Positions 12,786 to 49,983 of a stretch of 64,000 bases of DNA are shown here, piece after piece; the first letter of the stretch is position 1; the number at the start of each line of letters is the position of its first letter. The notes under the pieces were generated by a model, which did not search any database, was not told where the DNA came from, and was given only the letters and a program-made list of their open reading frames with translations. The DNA is taken from contig OZ024744.1 in assembly GCA_964016885.1 (NCBI GenBank), positions 89,156,001-89,220,000 on the forward strand, given 5' to 3'. The DNA comes from Eledone cirrhosa (Eukaryota). Made by a program: the position numbers and the translations under genes.

Positions 12786-12880
<95 letters not shown>

Positions 12881-12939
12881 GGACGTAAAATAAGAAAATT
12901 TTAAAAAAAGATTTAAAAAATTAACTTACTAAAATTTTC

Positions 12940-13021
12940 ACTCCAACTAATTAGTTTCTGCAATGGGATAAAGGCAGTTACGTAATATAACCGTCGAGAA
13001 TTCATTGCGTCATCAGGGAGT
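12940..13021 (-). ncRNA. Type I hammerhead (inverted copy of 13502-13583)
   Basis: Reverse complement of the plus-strand motif with one substitution in the distal stem II hairpin. Confidence 0.8.
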
Positions 13022-13501
13022 GACAATTTTAGGGAGTGAAAATTTTAGTAAGTAAGTTAATTTTTTAAATCTTTTTTTAAAATTTTCTTATTTTACGTCC
13101 TTCATATTATTGTTCTGCATCCTCCTGCATTGAAACACCTAGGTACTATGACATAACTTATGTATTTGCTGGCATTAGCGTACATCTGTACGCATTTGTT
13201 AGTAGATATACTAAATTCTCTATATTTATCTCCAAATTATTTATTTGTTGAGCAAACCTGCCAAAACCACTACTAATTCATTGGTGTGGTAGTAGGCTTC
13301 TGTCATCTTACCATCCCACTCCTTCCGACTAGCCTCAGTGTCACGTGATTGATTCTTTAGAATCTGCCATTTGACCAGAGACAGCGAGCTTTTCAGTGCA
13401 TGGAATCCAGTCCCCGCTAGCTGTTCCATCTACCGAATTATTATTATTTTTATATGAGTCCCCGGTGTCCGCGCATTGCCTGGAGACTTAGCTGAGAATA
13501 G

Positions 13502-13583
13502 ACTCCCTGATGACGCAATGAATTCTCGACGGTTATATTACGTAACTGTCTTTATCCCATTGCAGAAACTAATTAGTTGGAGT
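13502..13583 (+). ncRNA. Type I hammerhead (predicted cleavage after 13578)
   Basis: ACTCC-CTGATGA-C-GCAATG..GACGGTTA/TAACTGTC..CATTGC-A-GAAAC-TAATTA-GTT-GGAGT. Confidence 0.85.
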
Positions 13584-13755
13584 GAAAATTTTAGTAAGTT
13601 AATTTTTTAAATCTTTTTTTTTAATTTTCTTATTTTACGTCCTTCATATTATTGTTCTGCATCCTCCTGCATTGAACCACCTAGGTACTATGACATAACT
13701 TATGTATTTGCTGGCATTAGCGTACATCTGTACGCATTTGTTAGTAGATATACTA

Positions 13756-13873
<118 letters not shown>

Positions 13874-19774: not shown

Positions 19775-21550
19775 TCCCAGTTCTGTGACCAAGGGCGTAG
19801 TCACGCTAGTCAGGAAGGACGAGAATAAGGGGGGATGACCTAGGTAACTTCAGGCCCATAACTCTGCTAAACACAGAGTTACAGATTTTGGCCAAGGTGT
19901 TGGCAAAGAGGCTGGCGCTTGTCGTCGGGAAACTGGTGGGAGAAGCGCAGACATACGCAATTCCGACCAGGTTAATACACGACAATCTCCACCTCATGCG
20001 ATACATCGTAGAGAGGATAGGGTGTGAACCCGGCTTCGGTGAGGCCCTGATCAACATGGATCTGTCTAAGGCGTTTGATAGGGTTGACCATCGTTACCTG
20101 GATGCGGTGCTCGAGGCGGCAGGCTTCGGAACCGTGTTCAGGGGCTGGATTACTGCAATGCACAGCAGCAACATCTGCTCAAAGGTCAAGGTCAACGGCT
20201 ACCTCTCGGAGCCGTTCCATATCACGCGATCCATCCGACAGAGATGCCCTCTCCTCCTTTCTGTACGTATTATCTTTCGAGCCACTACTGCGGAATCTGG
20301 AGCTATTGCAGGGCATCTCTCTGGAACCGGGACTGCGTAAAGCGACGTCGGCCTAGGCCAACGACGTGACAGTAATGGTGTCGAGCGCCTCGCAAATCGG
20401 GGAGGTCGGCACCTTACTGGAGGAATACGAAGTTTCACAGGAGCGAAGCTGAACCGAGACAAATCCGTCGGTTTGCAACTCGGAACGTGGAGAGGCAAAC
20501 CGATGCCTTCCGATGGCGTCATCGGACGCCGGACGGAAGGACCGGTAAAGCTGCTCGGGGTCTGGTTTGGTCCGGACCTCCAGGTGGAGAAGAACTGGAA
20601 CGAGGTGACGGCCAAGGTGTTTGCGCTCACCCAGAAGTGGGCCGAGTGCAAACTATCCTTGAAAGGTCGAGCGGAGGTGGCGAACACTTTTATAGCGTCC
20701 GCCATCTACTACCGCTTGACCGTCGTGCCTTGTCCAGCCAAAATGCTCACGAAAATGGAGCGCGCGCTCTTCCAATTCCTTTGGAAGAAACGGGTTCCTT
20801 TGGTGAGAAGATCCATCTGCTGCCAACACCCTTCAAACAGAGGGCTGGGGGTGCCGTGGATGACGATGCGCAAACACACGCTCAGGCTGCGGCACCTCTA
20901 CGTATTCCTCACGGGACAATCGGTGTGGGCCCCGTTCGTGAGGCGAGCCTTCCCACGAGTCGTCTCGCTGACCGAGCTGCAGTCCTGGGTCAAGCAAAGA
21001 CCGAGGAAAATGGGCGACTGGCACATTGAATGTGCTCAGGCGCTCACAGTCCTCTGGCAAACGGACTCGGCGATCACTGGAGACTCCATTTCGACATTCT
21101 ATAGAGGGTTAGTCCGCAGCAAGTGCAACGACATGCTCGGAGAAACTCTAGGCGTAGAGGAGGACGTACTGGCCAGTCTGTTCGATGAAACCGTCGCGCA
21201 CGCATTTGTACACTGCCCGGGCGTTACGGACCTGTGGGTCTATGTAGAACGACTATTGTCGCGGATGGGACCAATCCAGTTGACCACCGAGTCCATTGTC
21301 ATGATCAAATCGCCACCCTCCTTCAAAAACGAAGGAGAGGCGGTTTTCCCATGTGTTATGGCTATGGTGAAAGAGGTTATATGGTGGACGAGGTTAAAAG
21401 GGCTGAGGTCAGACACCTTTCTCTCAGTCGAACAACTGATTCGTTTTTTCAAATATCATTTTGGAAGAAGAATCAGGATGGAGAGAGAGGTGCTGTACCC
21501 CAGCAAGTTTTATAAAAGGTGGGTGAATGTGGCAAAGATGGCCCGAGTGG
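19773..21550 (+). pseudogene. 5'-truncated Tx1 ORF2 copy with stop, frameshifts and an internal deletion
   Basis: Homologous to ORF2; YADD reads TAG-A-N-D at ~20354; deletion at 21183 removes CPRC; starts directly after (TATC)n. Confidence 0.92.
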
Positions 21551-22100
21551 TAGCTCCAATAATGATCGGTATGAAGCTAAAGGTGTATCTTGGATACTGG
21601 ATTTGTAAACTCCTCATCAATGGTCCGTAGATGTCCTCCTCCTGTATTTTTCTGACAACGTTTACATAAAATGGGAAACTGCTCTCCACAACACAACACG
21701 TTTTCAATATGTGGTCCCAAACAACAATAGCAGGCCGATTGTGCTTTAATTTGGTGGCAGTTTTTATTTTCAGGTTCCACCAGTATTCCTTAGTGCCATC
21801 TGTCTCAATATATTCTTCCTCGTTTGTTGTTAATTTTGTTTTCCGAAGTGCGTTCCAGATGGTTCTAGCTATCCTATCGTGTCTCATGGGGAGGTAGTAG
21901 CGAGATGACATTCTTTCGCAGCTGGCAACAATGTGGCTTACATCCTCAATCTTTGTTTTACAAAGCCTACATTTATTGTCAGCTGATGGCCCTCCCCTTT
22001 TGTGCAGCAGATATTTGGTAGGGAGTTCTTGTTCCTGTATGGCATAGAGATATCCCTCAAAGTGTGATGTCATAAACTTGTCGGAACTCCATGCCAGGCT
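21551..22100 (-). mobile_element. Fragment of an RLE-type non-LTR retrotransposon (R4/Dong-like C-terminus)
   Basis: EGYLYAIQEQ..CRLC..EDVSHIVASC..RHDRIA..HNRP(A)IVV..FIPIIIGA: CCHC, RHD and PD-type nuclease motifs. Confidence 0.8.
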
Positions 22101-22572: not shown

Positions 22573-22756
22573 CGTATATTATAATTGAATATAAAAGAAA
22601 AACGAACACAGATATATACATATATGTGCTCAAATCGCAAGGGACCAGATTCGCTAAGGTGAAAAGAACACTAACTATAGACAATTGGGTTCGCTTGTCT
22701 CAATTTAAGAATAAATCAAGAAAATAAATACAAACCGGAATTGTGGTAACTACCAA

Positions 22757-22834
22757 TCACCCAGACAGCTCTTGGTGCTGTTTCGCAATATTAATTGTAA
22801 ATAGAATTACCCATTCTTGCTCATCAGTGGGTGA
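22757..22834 (-). ncRNA. Canonical type I hammerhead with GUC site
   Basis: TCACCCA-CTGATGA-GCAA...TTGC-GAAAC-AGC accaaga GCT-GTC-TGGGTGA; 7-bp stem I, 5-bp stem III. Confidence 0.9.
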
Positions 22835-23174
22835 CCAATTAGTATTCTAGACACTTCTAAGTATATTAAGAAACTGAATAGTGTGCTATATATAACAACG
22901 CACATGGTATCTTAGCGTGTCTCACAAACTTACACCACTAAAAATAGCAGCCAGGTTTATTCGACATTTGAAATAGCTCAACAAATTAACGGAGCCGAAT
23001 ATATCGAAGGTATATATTGAGTTAGGAACTCAAAACTCAAAATGTCGAATAAACCTGGCTGCTATTTTTAGTGGTGTAAGTTTGTGAGACACGCTAAGGT
23101 ACCATGTGCGTTATTATATATAGCACACTATTTAGTTCCTTAATATACTTAGAAGTGTCTAGGATACTAATTGG

Positions 23175-23254
23175 TCACCCACTGATGAGCAAGAATTGGT
23201 ATTTCTATTCACAATTAATTAGCATTGCGAAACAGCACCAAGCTGTCTGGTTGA
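23175..23254 (+). ncRNA. Canonical type I hammerhead (predicted cleavage after 23247)
   Basis: TCACCCA-CTGATGA-GCAA...TTGC-GAAAC-AGC accaa GCT-GTC-TGGTTGA. Confidence 0.87.
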
Positions 23255-23498
23255 TTAATAGTTACCACAGTTCCGGAATGTATTTATTTCCTTGATTTAT
23301 TCTTAAATTGAGACAGGCAAACCCTATTGTCTTTTCACTTAGCGAATCTGGTCCCTTGCGATTTGAACACATATATGCATATATCTGTGTTCGTTCTTCT
23401 TTTATATTCAATTATAATATACGGCTCGGAAGAATCTCCTTCTTAGAGCTATTTAATTGTAAGAGACTATTGTGAGTTCCTAACTCAATATATACCTT

Positions 23499-36800: not shown

Positions 36801-38830
36801 CACCACCATCACTACCACCACAACCACCACCGCCACCCCTACCACCATCACCACCACCACCACCACAACCACGACCACAACCACAACCACGGCCACAACC
36901 ATAACTACCACCGCAACCACAACAACCACAACCACAACCACAACCACTGCCACAACCACAACCACAACCACAACATCAACCACAACCACAACTACTACCA
37001 CAACCACAACTACAACCACTACCACAACCACAACCACAACCACTACCACAACCACCACCACAACCACAACCACAACTACAACCACGGCCAGAACCATAAC
37101 CGCCACCTCAACCACAACCACAAGCACTACCACAACCACTACCACAACCACAACTACAACCACAACCATAACCACAGCCACAACCACTACCACCACAACC
37201 ATTACCAGCACAACCACTACCACCACAACCACAGCTACGACCACAACCATTACAACCACAACCACAGCCACAACTACAACCACAACCACAACTAGAGCCA
37301 CAACCACAACCATAACCACAACCACCACAACCACTACCACCACAACCTCTACCACCACCACCACTACCACTACAACTACCACCATCACTACAACAATCAC
37401 CATCATTACCACAAACACCACCACCACCAACACCACTACTACCACCAACACCACCACCAGTACCACCAACACTACCATCACCACTTCCCCCAACAACACT
37501 ACCACCACCACTACCACTACTACCTACACCACCACCACAACCACTACCTCCACTACCAACACCACCAACACCACCACCACTACCACTACTACGAGCACCA
37601 CCAACACCACCACCACTACCACTACTATGAGCACCACCACTAACACCACCACCACTGCCACCGCTAACACCACCACCACTACTACCACCACCACTACCAC
37701 AACCACTACCACCACCACAAGCACCAGGACCGCCACTACTACCATCACCACCACCACCACAACAACAACAACCACCACTACAACCACCAACACCACCACT
37801 ACTACCATCACCACCACAACCACCACCACAGCTACCTCTACCACCACCACTACCACCACCACCATCACAACCACCACGACTACCACCACGACCTCCACCA
37901 CAACCACCACCACAACCACTACCTCCACTACCAACACCACCAACACCACCACCACTACCACTACTACGAGCACCACCACTAACACCACAACCACTGCCAC
38001 AACCACAGCCACAACCACAACCACAACTACAACCACTACCACAACCACCACCACAGCCACAACTACAACCACGGCCACAACGATAACCACCACCTCAACC
38101 ACCACCTCAACCACAACCACAAGCACTACCACAACCTCTACCACAACCACCACCACCACAACCATTACCACCACAACCACAGCCACAACCACAACCACAA
38201 CCACAACCAGCACAACCACTATCACCATAACCACTACCACCACCACCACCACTACTACACCTACTACCATCACTACCACAATCACCATCATTACCACAAA
38301 CACCACCACCAACACCACTACTACCACCACCACTACCACCACAACCACCACCAGTACCACCAACACTACCATCACCACTTCCCCCAACAACACTACCACC
38401 ACCACTACCACTACTACCTACACCACCACCACCACCACCACCACCACTACCTCCCTAACCAACACGACCAACCCTACCACCACAACCACTACTCCGAGCA
38501 CCACCACTAACAACACCATCACTGCCACCGCTAACACCACCACCACACCACCACCACTACCACCACCACCACCACTACCACCACCACCACTACCACCACC
38601 ACATCCATCACCACCACCACCACCACTTCCACTACTACCACGACCACTACTACTACTACCACCATCACCACCACCACCACCACTTCCACTACCACCACCA
38701 CCACCACCACTACTACTACCACCATCACCACCACCACCACCACTACCACCACCACATCCATCACCACCACCACCACCACCACCACTACCACCACCACATC
38801 CATCACCACCACCACCACCACCACCACCAC
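33820..38830. repeat. 5-kb (ACC/ACA/ACT)n complex trinucleotide tract with higher-order repeats; poly-Thr reading on plus
   Basis: Landmark ACTTCCCC(C)AACAACACTACCACCACCACTACCACTACTACCTAC recurs near 34950, 36140, 37480, 38375. Confidence 0.9.
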
Positions 38831-42409: not shown

Positions 42410-43190
42410 TGTTCTTCTGGTTTTATAATTTCACAAATTTGTTTCCCAATAGAGTGAGAGTCGGTTTCTAACATAGACACAAGACTCTCTCATTGGAATT
42501 TACATGAAATATAATGATACATCTCCTTTGTATATATTTCTTTAAGTAAGAAATATATTTCACCTATTAATCCGTAAATCACAGCAGTTAAATTCTTGGA
42601 TGTTCACCAAAGGAGAAGAAAAATAACCATCTGTGTTTACAAAGCAAATGCAAATCTGTGAATGATTCGAACCACGTATTGCATTTTTTTTTAAATACAC
42701 TCGTTGAACAACGTCATCCCAGTGGCGTGAAGAGGACCATCGACAGCCAAAAATAGCAGCCGAGCCTATTCAACTTAAAATTAAGGGTTGTCATGTCTGA
42801 GAGACATGCACCATATCCACCGTAGAATAAGCTCAAAGATTAGATCCGAGCATTACATATCAACTAGAAATAGATTGACATATATATATATAAAATAAAT
42901 ACATGAAACAATCACAGGGAATAATTTGTAAAGAATGTAAGCACACATAGCTAGGTAGGTGACTAATTAAAGTTTGACTAGAACTTCAAATATAGATACC
43001 TTTTAAAATGATTAATCTCCTTTGGATATATTTCTTTAAGTAAGAAATATATTTCATCTATTAATCCTATTTCTGGCTGTCGATGGTCTTATTCACGCCA
43101 CTGGGATGACGTTGTTCAACGAGTGTATTTTTTAAAATGCAACACGTGGTTCGAATCATTCACAGATTTGCATTTGCTTTGTAAACACAA
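42410..43190 (-). mobile_element. Non-coding PLE-type element with 5' inversion and partial direct repeat (495-bp period)
   Basis: 43068-43189 is the reverse complement of ~42632-42754; 42521-42572 repeats at 43016-43067. Confidence 0.75.
42522..42616 (-). ncRNA. Type I hammerhead, G3-C8 variant
   Basis: TCTCCTTTG-GTGAACA-T-CC...GG-T-GAAA-TATATTTCTT actta AAGAAATATA-T-A-CAAAGGAGA; 9-bp stem I, 11-bp stem III. Confidence 0.75.
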
Positions 43191-43229
43191 ATATATATAT
43201 ATATTTATAACATGATAAGTATATATATA

Positions 43230-44908: not shown

Positions 44909-44973
<65 letters not shown>

Positions 44974-45011
44974 ATTAAATAAATGGAAAACTATATTTAT
45001 AAAACCATATT

Positions 45012-45077
45012 TATTTCATTATATATATTTCGGGGATATCATATTAACAATATGCTATGCCTTCATCAGACAAAATA
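45012..45077 (-). ncRNA. Hammerhead in the inverted pseudo-LTR
   Basis: Reverse complement of 48364-48429. Confidence 0.78.
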
Positions 45078-45226
45078 CAATATAAACAGTTTTATAGATA
45101 AATATATTCGACATACCGTAATAAACATCAACTTCATTTGAAGAGGTTTACGCTAGCAGTGAAAATACAGAGAGAAAGAAAGAGAGAAAGAAAAGAGCAG
45201 ATAGAGATAGCAATTTTGACATAACT

Positions 45227-46477
45227 ATGGGATCTTCCGACTCAGCTCAGGTAACTGACCTTGTGGGCTTATTTTTAATCAATTCGCTACATAGGAAAAT
45301 ACCTGGTACTACCGGAGGTTTATATAGGGATGACATGCTTTTACTTATTAATAATAATAACCCTGAACTAAATAGAAAATGTAAACAAATTACAAATTTT
45401 TTTAATTACTTTAACCTTAAAATAGAAATTGAGAACAACCATAGAATAGTCAATTTCCTAGATATAACATTAAATCTCAACACATGTCTCCACTATCCTT
45501 TTCACAAGTTGAATGAAAACTTAAACTATGTCAACTTTAACTCTAACCACCCCAGATCTGTCAAAAACACTATAGTAAACTCAGTCCAAAAACGTATCTC
45601 TAGGATCTCGTTGAATAGAAAGATTTTTGACGAAAAGGCCCAATACTATAATGATGCACTAGCTAGGGCAGGGTATGATGATAAGATTGTGTACATAGAT
45701 AATGATAGACAAACTAAACAAAGTAACAACTTTTTTAATTACGGCAACAACATTAACAACTATAATAGTAAGCATTACAATAATTCCAAAGGACAAAAAA
45801 GAAATAGAACTAGGAACATAATTTGGTTTGCCCCCCCTTTCTCACTAAACATTAAAACCCACATCGCTAAATTATTTTTCAAAGCTCTTGATAATCGCTT
45901 CCCTAGAACACATAGGTATCACTCAATCTTCAATAGGCATACAATTAAATTAACCTACTCATCCACCAAAAATTTAGCACAAAATATTAATAGAATAAAT
46001 AATAGGAACTTAAAACCTACTGATAATAGCATAAATAATATACAAGTTAACAAATGTAACTGTAGAGATAGATCTAAATGTCCGTTAAATAACAACTGCT
46101 TAGTTAAAAATATAGTATACAATTGTAATGTTAATACTGACTCTAATTCTTTTAACTACGTCGGTTCCACATCGACGGAATTTAAACTTCGCTATAATAA
46201 CCACAAGAATTCTTTCACAGATCCAAATAAAAATTCTTCAACGGCACTATCAGGGGTACTCTGGCAACTTAAGCTAGATAACGTTAGATATTCGACGGCT
46301 TGGAATATAGTCTCAAGAGGGATTCCTTTTAATTCATCCTCTGAGACATGTGACCTCTGCGCAGAGGAGATATTCTTTATACTAAAATCTAAAAATTCCC
46401 TTAACCTACGGACAAATTTATTCAGTTGTTGCAAACATAGATTAAACTCAACGTTTAAATATAAATTTAAAATGTAG
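45227..46477 (+). CDS. PLE reverse transcriptase C-half plus GIY-YIG endonuclease (YRDD type, probably Naiad-like), 5'-truncated
   Basis: (FDIT)MGSSDSAQVTDLVG, GLYRDD, NFLDITL, SNHP, CNCR..CPL..CL, NIVY..YVGST..FKLRYNNH, CDLC..E..LN.R..CKH. Confidence 0.92.
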   Translation: MGSSDSAQVTDLVGLFLINSLHRKIPGTTGGLYRDDMLLLINNNNPELNRKCKQITNFFNYFNLKIEIENNHRIVNFLDITLNLNTCLHYPFHKLNENLNYVNFNSNHPRSVKNTIVNSVQKRISRISLNRKIFDEKAQYYNDALARAGYDDKIVYIDNDRQTKQSNNFFNYGNNINNYNSKHYNNSKGQKRNRTRNIIWFAPPFSLNIKTHIAKLFFKALDNRFPRTHRYHSIFNRHTIKLTYSSTKNLAQNINRINNRNLKPTDNSINNIQVNKCNCRDRSKCPLNNNCLVKNIVYNCNVNTDSNSFNYVGSTSTEFKLRYNNHKNSFTDPNKNSSTALSGVLWQLKLDNVRYSTAWNIVSRGIPFNSSSETCDLCAEEIFFILKSKNSLNLRTNLFSCCKHRLNSTFKYKFKM

Positions 46478-46854
46478 TATATTTAGTTTGATTTATATTT
46501 ATATGAGAGCTAGCCGATAAATCTTTTGATTCCTAAATCTTTGATTCCCTCTTTTTACTCTTTTTACTCTTTTTATTTTATTTTATTTATTTTTATTTTT
46601 ATCTAAACATTCCTCATGAAAAATTAAGCTACCCTAAAAGCCGATGCTCCAAATTTTTTGAATTAACCTTACACTAGATAAACTTCTATATTAAATATAG
46701 GAACATATGTAGACATTATTGGACATCATAATCTTTTTGCGATATTCTTTGCTAGATGTGATTTGATAGATAATTTTTGGCTTTGTCTTGTAATGAACTT
46801 GGCAATATATTGTCAATTAACTTTGAAGGGTTGTTCTTTGTGGTTTATTTTTAC

Positions 46855-47321
46855 TTTTATTTTCATTTTTATTTTTATTTTTATTTTTATTTTTATTTTT
46901 ATTTTTATTTTTATTTTTATTTTTATTTTTATTTTTATTTTTATTTTTATTTTTATTTTTATTTTTATTTTTATTTTTAATTTTATTTTTATTTTTATTT
47001 TTATTTTTATTTTTATTTTTATTTTTATTTTTATTTTTATTTTTATTTTTATTTTTATTTTTATTTTTATTTTTATTTTTATTTTTATTTTTATTTTTAT
47101 TTTTATTTTTATTTTTATTTTTATTTTTATTTTTATTTTTATTTTTATTTTTATTTTTATTTTTATTTTTATTTTTATTTTTATTTTTATTTTTATTTTT
47201 ATTTTTATTTTTATTTTTATTTTTATTTTTATTTTTATTTTTATTTTTATTTTTATTTTTATTTTTATTTTTATTTTTATTTTTATTTTTATTTTTATTT
47301 TTATTTTTATTTTTATTTTTA
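46855..47321. repeat. (TTTTTA)n hexanucleotide expansion within the PLE 3' UTR
   Basis: Directly visible. Confidence 0.97.
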
Positions 47322-47969
47322 TTCTTTTAGTATTGTAGTATTCTATAATATTTTTATTTTATTTTTAATATTTTTATATGTATATTTTTAATACGTAATA
47401 TTTTTTAATACGTAGTATTTTTAATATGCAATATTATTTTTATTATGTAATATTCTTTCGTAATATTTTTTTATTTTTTTAGTTTTCTATTCTATATTTT
47501 TATATATTTTTACTTATTATTATTATTATTGTTATCTTTGTTTATAATATAATATATATTTTCGATTAGTATATTGAAATCTGCTCTCTATTTCTGCTTG
47601 ATAGATAATCTTGTAGAGTAATCGCAAGAATAATAATACGCTCAAATTTTTATACCACATTGAGAATGTTTTCCGGTAACCTAGAGTTTGCGGAGTGAAT
47701 CAGTTGGATTCACATTGATGTTTGTAGCTGTCACATAAACATATGAATTTTTTAAAACTAAACATAAGATAATGAATTTTCACACATTGTGAATACTTGT
47801 TTCATTCAGGAATACTGATATTTACAATATAGTGTAAGTTTTATAAATATTAATACATTAAAACATAGGGTTTTCTACGCCTCGAATATGTCTGGCTATT
47901 TTTAAATTTTTTCTCTCTCTATATCTCTCTATATCTCTCTATATATCTCCCTTACATTAATACTTGAGC

Positions 47970-48000
<31 letters not shown>

Positions 48001-48363
48001 ATGTATCATTGATACACTTACTCAAAATGACCTCCCACTACCTAATTTTCTATATATATATATGTATCTATCTCTATTTCCTCTCTCTATATATATATGT
48101 ATCTCTTTCTGTCTCTTTACATGAAGCTCTTCGCTTTATCTATTTTTCAATCTCTCTATTTTGTTCCATGCATTTCTTCTTTTTCTTTTTCTTCTTTTTC
48201 TTCCTTTTCTTCGTTTTGTCTTTCTTTCTTTCTTTTTTTTTCCCTCTTTTCTTTCTCTCTTTCTTTCTCTCTGTATTTTCACTGCTAGCGTAAACCTCTT
48301 CAAATGAAGTTGATGTTTATTACGGTATGTCGAATATATTTATCTATAAAACTGTTTATATTG

Positions 48364-48429
48364 TATTTTGTCTGATGAAGGCATAGCATATTGTTAATAT
48401 GATATCCCCGAAATATATATAATGAAATA
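48364..48429 (+). ncRNA. Minimal type I hammerhead in the PLE 3' pseudo-LTR
   Basis: TATTTTGT-CTGATGA-A-GG..CATATT gtt AATATG..CC-C-GAAA-TATATAT-A-ATGAAATA. Confidence 0.8.
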
Positions 48430-48557
48430 AATATGGTTTTATAAATATAGTTTTCCATTTATTTAATATTGTAAATATACTCCAAATATTTGTCGAGTGC
48501 TTTTATATCAGTTATAAATATTTACTAGTTGTAACCCAACAATTTTAAATATAACTT

Positions 48558-48613
<56 letters not shown>

Positions 48614-49350: not shown

Positions 49351-49983
49351 ATATATATAAATGTAATCTGAGTTTTTCGAATATTAATAATAACATTCGA
49401 TTCGTTTGCAATTATGCAAACAAGCTCAATTTTATAGGCATGTCAGTAGAATGAACACTTCATTCTTGCTCTTGTGTTGGCATGTGAACAGAACTGCAGA
49501 CACTAATGTTTCTGGGTATCACCCTTCATCAGTACAGCTCACTGTTCATCTGCCAAACTCTCAGAGCTAGTGAAAATATATGTTATTTTCAAAAATGCAC
49601 AGTGGCTGATCGGCCTGATTTGCATATTATCAGACTGGCTGACCAGCCAGATCAGCTTATTAGCAGATCCACTGATCAGCCAGATTTGCATATCAGCAGA
49701 CTTGTCAATCAGTTTCCTGTATACGAGCGATAAATGGCCGGCTTTGCCAAATTCAAATAAAAAAGGAAATTCCGCTCTACATGGCTGAATACAATAAATG
49801 TAATCTGAGTTTTTCGAATATTAATAATTGTTTCTACTTTAGGCACAAGGCCAGCAAATACCCAGTGTATTACTGGTACTTTATTAAGCTTAAACATTTT
49901 ATAACTGATATAAAGCACTCAACATTGTTGGAGTAAATATTCAATATATTAATAAATGAAAACTATATTTATAAAAGCATAAT

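Follow-up and report, generated by a model that had tools for sequence, protein, structure and literature searches.

The C3-G8 tertiary pair of the hammerhead ribozyme has been proved by engineered swaps. A locus of Eledone cirrhosa (contig OZ024744.1) raised the question of whether a natural family carries the reverse pair, G3-C8, whether its RNA would still cut itself, and what kind of element copies it. The locus was analyzed within a window (the whole stretch of DNA studied, 64,000 nucleotides) of AT-rich, microsatellite-dense DNA of animal type, the SINE-like repeats of which we take to resemble those of octopus genomes. The original prediction placed a minus-strand GUGAACA core between a 9-bp stem I and an 11-bp stem III with an AUA site, and this arrangement was reproduced by a descriptor scan. 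The parts of the motif are given below by window position.

42522..42616, minus strand: complete type I hammerhead motif with a G3-C8 core (descriptor scan, fold and simulations)
42608..42616, minus strand: 5' strand of stem I, partner of 42530-42522
42601..42607, minus strand: core GUGAACA, read as G3 U4 G5 A6 A7 C8 A9 (G3 at 42607, C8 at 42602), kept in aligned copies
42562..42600, minus strand: stem II and its loop, CC/GG in the window copy and CCAA/UUGG where 42565 has the common family letter
42532..42561, minus strand: G12 A13 A14 (42561-42559), then the 11-bp stem III at 42558-42532, capped by a 5-nt loop
42531, minus strand: A17 of the AUA triplet, with the cut predicted 3' of A17

Stem I (UCUCCUUUG/CAAAGGAGA) consists of 9 Watson-Crick pairs. 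The motif at 42616-42522 has the three-stem junction with stem I open, and U4 G5 A6, A9, G12 A13 A14, A15.1-U16.1 and H17 are all in place. The literal C3/G8 of the CUGANGA core is absent, the motif reading G3 and C8, which could form a Watson-Crick 3-8 pair as G3-C8. The R10.1-Y11.1 pair closing stem II is absent as well; instead, U10.1 (42600) faces U11.1 (42562), followed by CC/GG, and the short proximal stem II that had been predicted was confirmed at 2 bp in the window copy. The 11-bp hairpin agrees with the long stem III of monomer type that had been expected. The premise that G3-C8 restores the tertiary pair held in part: the published C3G/G8C exchange rescues cleavage of a Penelope-like element (PLE) hammerhead, but not fully (PMC11167929). 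The swap is the same as in that engineered mutant, as described in the available parts of PMC11167929 and of a review (PMC8495972), but here it is natural and common to many genomic copies.

AT-rich repeat DNA may form chance hairpins that imitate a hammerhead, a reading that draws on the AT-rich stems of the motif and on the lack of an Rfam match. The motif was undetected by Rfam at the gathering threshold or at E ≤ 10, and four matches at E 2-10 were judged to be chance. At the gathering threshold Rfam also missed the canonical-core hammerhead motifs of the window. As a null model, 150 order-2 Markov, composition-matched simulations of the first 51.7 kb of the window were made. A 3-8-paired core with a stem I of at least 9 and a stem III of at least 11 occurred in none of them (0/150), and the sum of stems I and III was 20 in the observed motif vs. 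16 in the best simulated one. At a relaxed threshold the real window gave 12 matches vs. 2.5 expected, which places other hammerhead elements in the neighborhood of the motif. The 95-nt motif folded at -23.5 kcal/mol (z = -3.5), and equally stable shuffles were not obtained (0/300). Against these results the chance reading is largely refuted, with next to no probability left to it, and 42616-42522 is a real hammerhead-type motif.

In the lowest-energy fold of the window copy, stems I and III were present, and stem II (pair probability 0.01) was misregistered and absorbed A9. The active fold lay 4.3 kcal/mol above this structure, vs. a gap of 1.1 kcal/mol with the common family letter at 42565. 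The probability of stem I varied with context (0.01 for 42450-42700 vs. ~0.5 for 42412-43192). By these folding models, the window copy is probably a weaker member of its family.

The 3' half of the ribozyme had been predicted to recur 495 bp away, followed by an inversion. Recurrence and inversion were both confirmed, but the offset is 494 nt. The locus is laid out as follows.

42531..43024, minus strand: 494-nt unit (GC content 33%) bounded by the two cut sites
42857..43024, minus strand: 168-nt tail downstream of the cut site, with the deepest coverage of the family
43004..43067, minus strand: second copy of the ribozyme 3' half (64 nt, 92% identity), with an AUC site in the window copy
43067..43192, plus strand: inverted 5' piece, a copy of 42629-42756 (128 nt, 92%)
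43191..43204, no strand: (TA)n microsatellite marking the 5' boundary of the insertion
42412..42509, no strand: separate high-copy hairpin repeat adjoining the truncated 3' end, outside the unit (depth and loose ends)

On the minus strand the order is (TA)n, the 128-nt inverted piece, the 3' half of the ribozyme, a 430-nt body, the full ribozyme, ~12 nt and the other repeat, amounting to ~1.1 units at the window locus. The span first noted (42410-43190) begins with a piece outside the unit, 42412-42509 being a different, very high-copy repeat. This repeat reached a peak summed depth of 609k in sequencing run X1, has (TATG)n flanks, and holds a CCAAT...ATTGG hairpin; after it, on the minus strand, come GAAA and a palindrome of 10 nt, but no hammerhead 5' core is recognizable. 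A target-site duplication was not found at the locus, and the 3' end of the element is truncated by another repeat. At the inversion junction, 55 nt equivalent to 42574-42628 (the ribozyme 5' half) are absent, and in a tandem the inverted piece would sit 55 nt upstream of the start of the sense part. Along the transcript, the inversion is 5' to the partial copy. This geometry is of the second-primer inversion type; it sets the RNA as minus-sense and the ribozyme as sense. Transcription from the plus strand would put the inversion at the 3' end, and was rejected for that reason. The template would have been ~1.5 units, as an uncut multimer or a circle.

The unit is non-coding and head-to-tail (a 494-nt partial tandem) with one type I hammerhead. 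No stop-free frame exceeds 69 codons, even when the unit is read as a circle, and neither the RT nor the GIY-YIG ORF of an autonomous PLE lies in it. The unit folded at z = -5.2, and none of 100 shuffles folded as well. The insertion bears a Penelope-like signature, namely a partial tandem, an inverted 5' copy, a tail past the hammerhead and a microsatellite target.

Copies were examined in public sequencing contigs. Twelve runs were listed, 8 of which contain part of the stretch (the best with 41% of its words), and four of the 12 (X1, X4, X6 and X8) were aligned at 80% likeness, with variants taken at a share of at least 8%. The aligned contigs numbered 4,453 in X1, 138 in X4, 20 in X6 and 7 in X8. 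The core was covered by X1, X4 and X6, the evidence from X6 being one 151-letter contig at depth 3, and X8 fell outside the core. The proposal of a separate family with a unit of ~495 nt was borne out, the 494-nt unit being multicopy in the contigs of the four runs. The summed X1 depth was 4,316 at 42612 vs. 4-10 for the long contigs listed. This points to hundreds of copies, a rough figure since summed depth differs from copy number.

A canonical C3-G8 requires plus-strand C>G at 42607 together with G>C at 42602, and in none of the three core-covering runs did both changes reach 8%. X1 had no G>C among its 46 variant places, X4 had no C>G among its 46, and every one of the 5 listed changes of X6 lay outside the core. 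Beyond those listed were 14 of the 46 places in X1 and 10 of the 46 in X4 (24 in total), with one C>A and one G>T among them in either run, which leaves room for a U3-A8 minority in the family. Eight listed changes fell in the motif or the second copy, and invariant core positions were hit by none of them (0/8). Three gave G·U wobbles, one restored a pair, one was at H17, and three disrupt distal pairs unless offset by changes beyond those listed. At 42565, 67% of the X1 depth has the letter with which stem II reaches 4 bp (CCAA/UUGG), and at 43025, the equivalent of A17, essentially all aligned depth reads A17. The X1 depth dipped at the core bin (5.5k vs. 13k either side), and one X1 contig, which returns from 43064 to 42623 and hence shows the tandem order, left ~50 of its letters unaligned on the core; diverged subfamilies may therefore have another core. 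At 43019 and 43021, 17% of the X1 depth has stem I variants, an indication of a subfamily with its 5' half outside the aligned data. Because of the places beyond those listed, the depth dip, the unaligned letters and the stem I variants, retention is stated for copies similar enough to align (80% likeness): among these the family keeps G3-C8, in line with the expectation that GTGANCA is retained.

Depth was highest at 42858-42989 (120-185k) and fell gradually through the ribozyme. It was low at 42660-42758 (2.6-4.3k), and contigs were continuous across 42794-43064. One joint connects (TA)n with 42857, a position 168 nt beyond the cut site. The profile and this joint fit a usual family 3' end near 42857 with heavy 5' truncation, which is probable. 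The aligned contigs were inspected for an abrupt drop in depth at the cut site, which would hint at cleavage in vivo, and the fall there was gradual. Joints from 42892-42904 to 43184-43191 were dismissed as AT-repeat artefacts. Of two metagenome scans, one gave 0 matches and the other a single, unrelated 23-letter match. Scanning phages for G3-C8 and a single fixed stem II gave 8 matches vs. 9 for the unpaired G3-G8 control, i.e., chance level, and none of the matches had convincing stems I and III.

The window holds further hammerhead elements. At 2230-3936 (plus strand) lies a U3-A8 element with UUGAUAA cores at 2597, 3188 and 3779, built of 591-nt tandem units of 99.8% identity; it looks very recent, and has a palindromic dimer-type stem III, an inverted 5' part and (TA)n tracts on both sides. 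A C3-G8 element at 12874-13774 (cores at 13507 on the plus and 13016 on the minus strand) has a long stem II with a C·A mismatch at its base, a palindromic stem III, a 546-nt repeat offset and an inverted copy, and lies between (TA)n tracts. The palindromic element at 22573-23423 contains two C3-G8 hammerheads (22827 minus, 23182 plus) with a 12-bp stem I and a hairpin stem III, and is a likely sister of the G3-C8 family, with which it has one motif in common.

42751..42771, minus strand: GAATA-N5-GGCTGCTATTT, common to the G3-C8 unit and the C3-G8 element at 22.6-23.4 kb

Exact matches to GAATA-N5-GGCTGCTATTT number 3 in the window, all of them 115-144 nt upstream of a core, and one unrelated site matches with 3 mismatches, vs. 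0.39 expected. CAAGAAU at the start of stem II is likewise common to the 22827 element and the G3-C8 motif. The alignment score of the two was matched by 6, 8 and 40 of 300 shuffles, and because this support is weak, common ancestry of the G3-C8 unit and the 22827 element is put as likely rather than established. CUGANGA hammerhead-like cores were also seen at 49532, 9900 and 30439 (all minus). In the 49532 core, the base of stem II is an A·A mismatch, which makes unpaired 10.1/11.1 positions a recurrent feature of the genome.

A 5'-truncated Penelope-like element occupies 44962-48560, with a 450-codon frame (45125-46477) carrying YRDD and GIY-YIG-like motifs, a long 3' region and a hammerhead at 48372. 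Its inverted 5' copy is 236 nt long and 99.6% identical, and 49898-50050 is a related piece. Look-alikes of the ORF scored 0.93-0.98, with HTH_animal in 31-94%, GIY-YIG in 21-27% and RVT_1 in 13-23% of the members of their clusters. A Pfam search of the ORF gave no match, for which reason its putative PLE-like assignment is a lead, and a PDB search returned nothing useful. No sequence shared by the 494-nt unit and this ORF was found. The other large features of the window are a two-ORF non-LTR retrotransposon at 4310-9530 (minus; endonuclease and RT, 1151-codon frame), a broken copy related to it at 19810-21630 (plus), a 5-kb CACCAC-type array at 33857-38830 and a 12-kb strand-biased satellite of 20-nt period at 51737-64000.

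Conceivably, the 494-nt repeat is the pseudo-LTR plus tail of an autonomous PLE, and the locus a rearranged fragment of it instead of a free-standing unit. PLEs do make partial tandems with inverted 5' copies and show a microsatellite bias (PMC8557442), the element at 44962-48560 shows such an architecture, and the low coverage at 42660-42758 also suits a fragment. This was nevertheless regarded as improbable: the cut sites are only 494 nt apart with no ORF between them, the contigs run continuously through 42794-43064, and the window has non-coding 546-591 nt tandem units of the same build.

The preferred reading, with a probability of about 0.68, is that a G3-C8 type I hammerhead ends a multicopy 494-nt non-coding unit, which is likely non-autonomous, retrozyme-like and copied by a PLE RT, and the RNA of which is predicted to self-cleave in monomeric form after AUA, probably slowly. 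For family-typical copies taken separately, we lean toward measurable monomer cleavage. By the mechanism proposed, the minus strand would be transcribed as a multimer, and G3-C8 would re-form the tertiary 3-8 pair. Since the pair would be preserved, the cut after AUA could be intramolecular, though probably slow. The 11-bp stem III would abolish the requirement for a dimer, and the two features together would thus yield 494-nt monomers, which may circularize. A PLE protein would nick (TA)n DNA and reverse-transcribe the uncut multimer or the circle, usually beginning internally ~170 nt downstream of the cut site; PLE RT is reported to initiate internally (PMC11167929). Truncation at the 5' end and second priming would then produce the partial tandem plus inversion. 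The U3-A8 and C3-G8 elements of the window share the tandem or inverted build, and the PLE-like ORF has its own hammerhead and inverted 5' copy.

The motif could also be an inactive passenger, derived from a hammerhead but without useful activity (G3-C8, U·U and C-G at the base of stem II), and amplified regardless because the PLE RT copies uncut RNA. In one PLE tested, hammerhead cleavage depended on protein, and insertion in vitro could proceed without cleavage (PMC11167929); moreover, the family depth lies mostly in the tail and not in the ribozyme, the window copy is predicted to misfold, and several non-standard features meet in one motif. Yet positions 3 and 8 both differ with the pairing kept, the remaining core letters are intact, stems I and III retain their 20 bp, and the common family letter makes stem II stronger, on which grounds the passenger was held to be unlikely, though less so than a PLE fragment.

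The retrozyme-like reading was compared with known systems, in each case from the available part of the source. PLE hammerheads of type I (PMC4209133) are similar in topology, in the partial tandem with an inverted 5' copy and in the long stem II. They differ in having C3-G8 or U3-A8, the latter a natural 3-8 covariation, in place of G3-C8, and a conserved G10.1-C11.1 in place of U·U then C-G. The animal motifs described there are minimal and dimeric, unlike the 11-bp hairpin stem III and ORF-less unit seen here, and it is the fungal and protist ones with a long helix III that cut as monomers. Metazoan non-LTR retrozymes, for which PLEs have been proposed as mobilizers (PMC7229834), resemble the present family in their non-coding, low-GC units, each with one type I hammerhead, and in a structured monomer; in one axolotl family among them the base of helix II is U·U. 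In contrast to that study, the unit here is 494 nt vs. ~220-400 nt, the core is swapped, a canonical loop I-loop II contact is not recognizable, and the locus has ~1.1 units plus an inversion. Natural U3-A8 and U10.1-U11.1 variants have been described (Perreault et al., 2011, PMC3088659). They share natural 3-8 covariation and U10.1-U11.1 with the present family, but G3-C8 was not found in the available text, and four GUGANCA spellings gave 0 matches in the supplement (11 files). A limited literature search found no natural G3-C8 in print, engineered uses only, and the literature searched gave no octopus hammerhead study.

More tentatively, and with the balance somewhat against it, an animal retroelement lineage would have fixed G3-C8 over hundreds of copies and in more than one species, and, together with the U·U-closed stem II, the pair would make an active, tuned-down monomeric hammerhead that spares multimeric or circular RNA as RT template. 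G3-C8 has hitherto been known as a laboratory rescue mutant, and the printed natural covariation found was U3-A8; with a natural G3-C8 family of many copies, the evolutionary evidence for the 3-8 pair would be complete, and searches based on CUGANGA would be missing whole ribozyme families in animal genomes. If the reading is true, C3-G8, U3-A8 and G3-C8 form a natural series. As the three core types stand in similarly built elements, cleavage rate could be set against the structure and copy number of the elements, and the series could be used to test what hammerheads do for Penelope-type elements.
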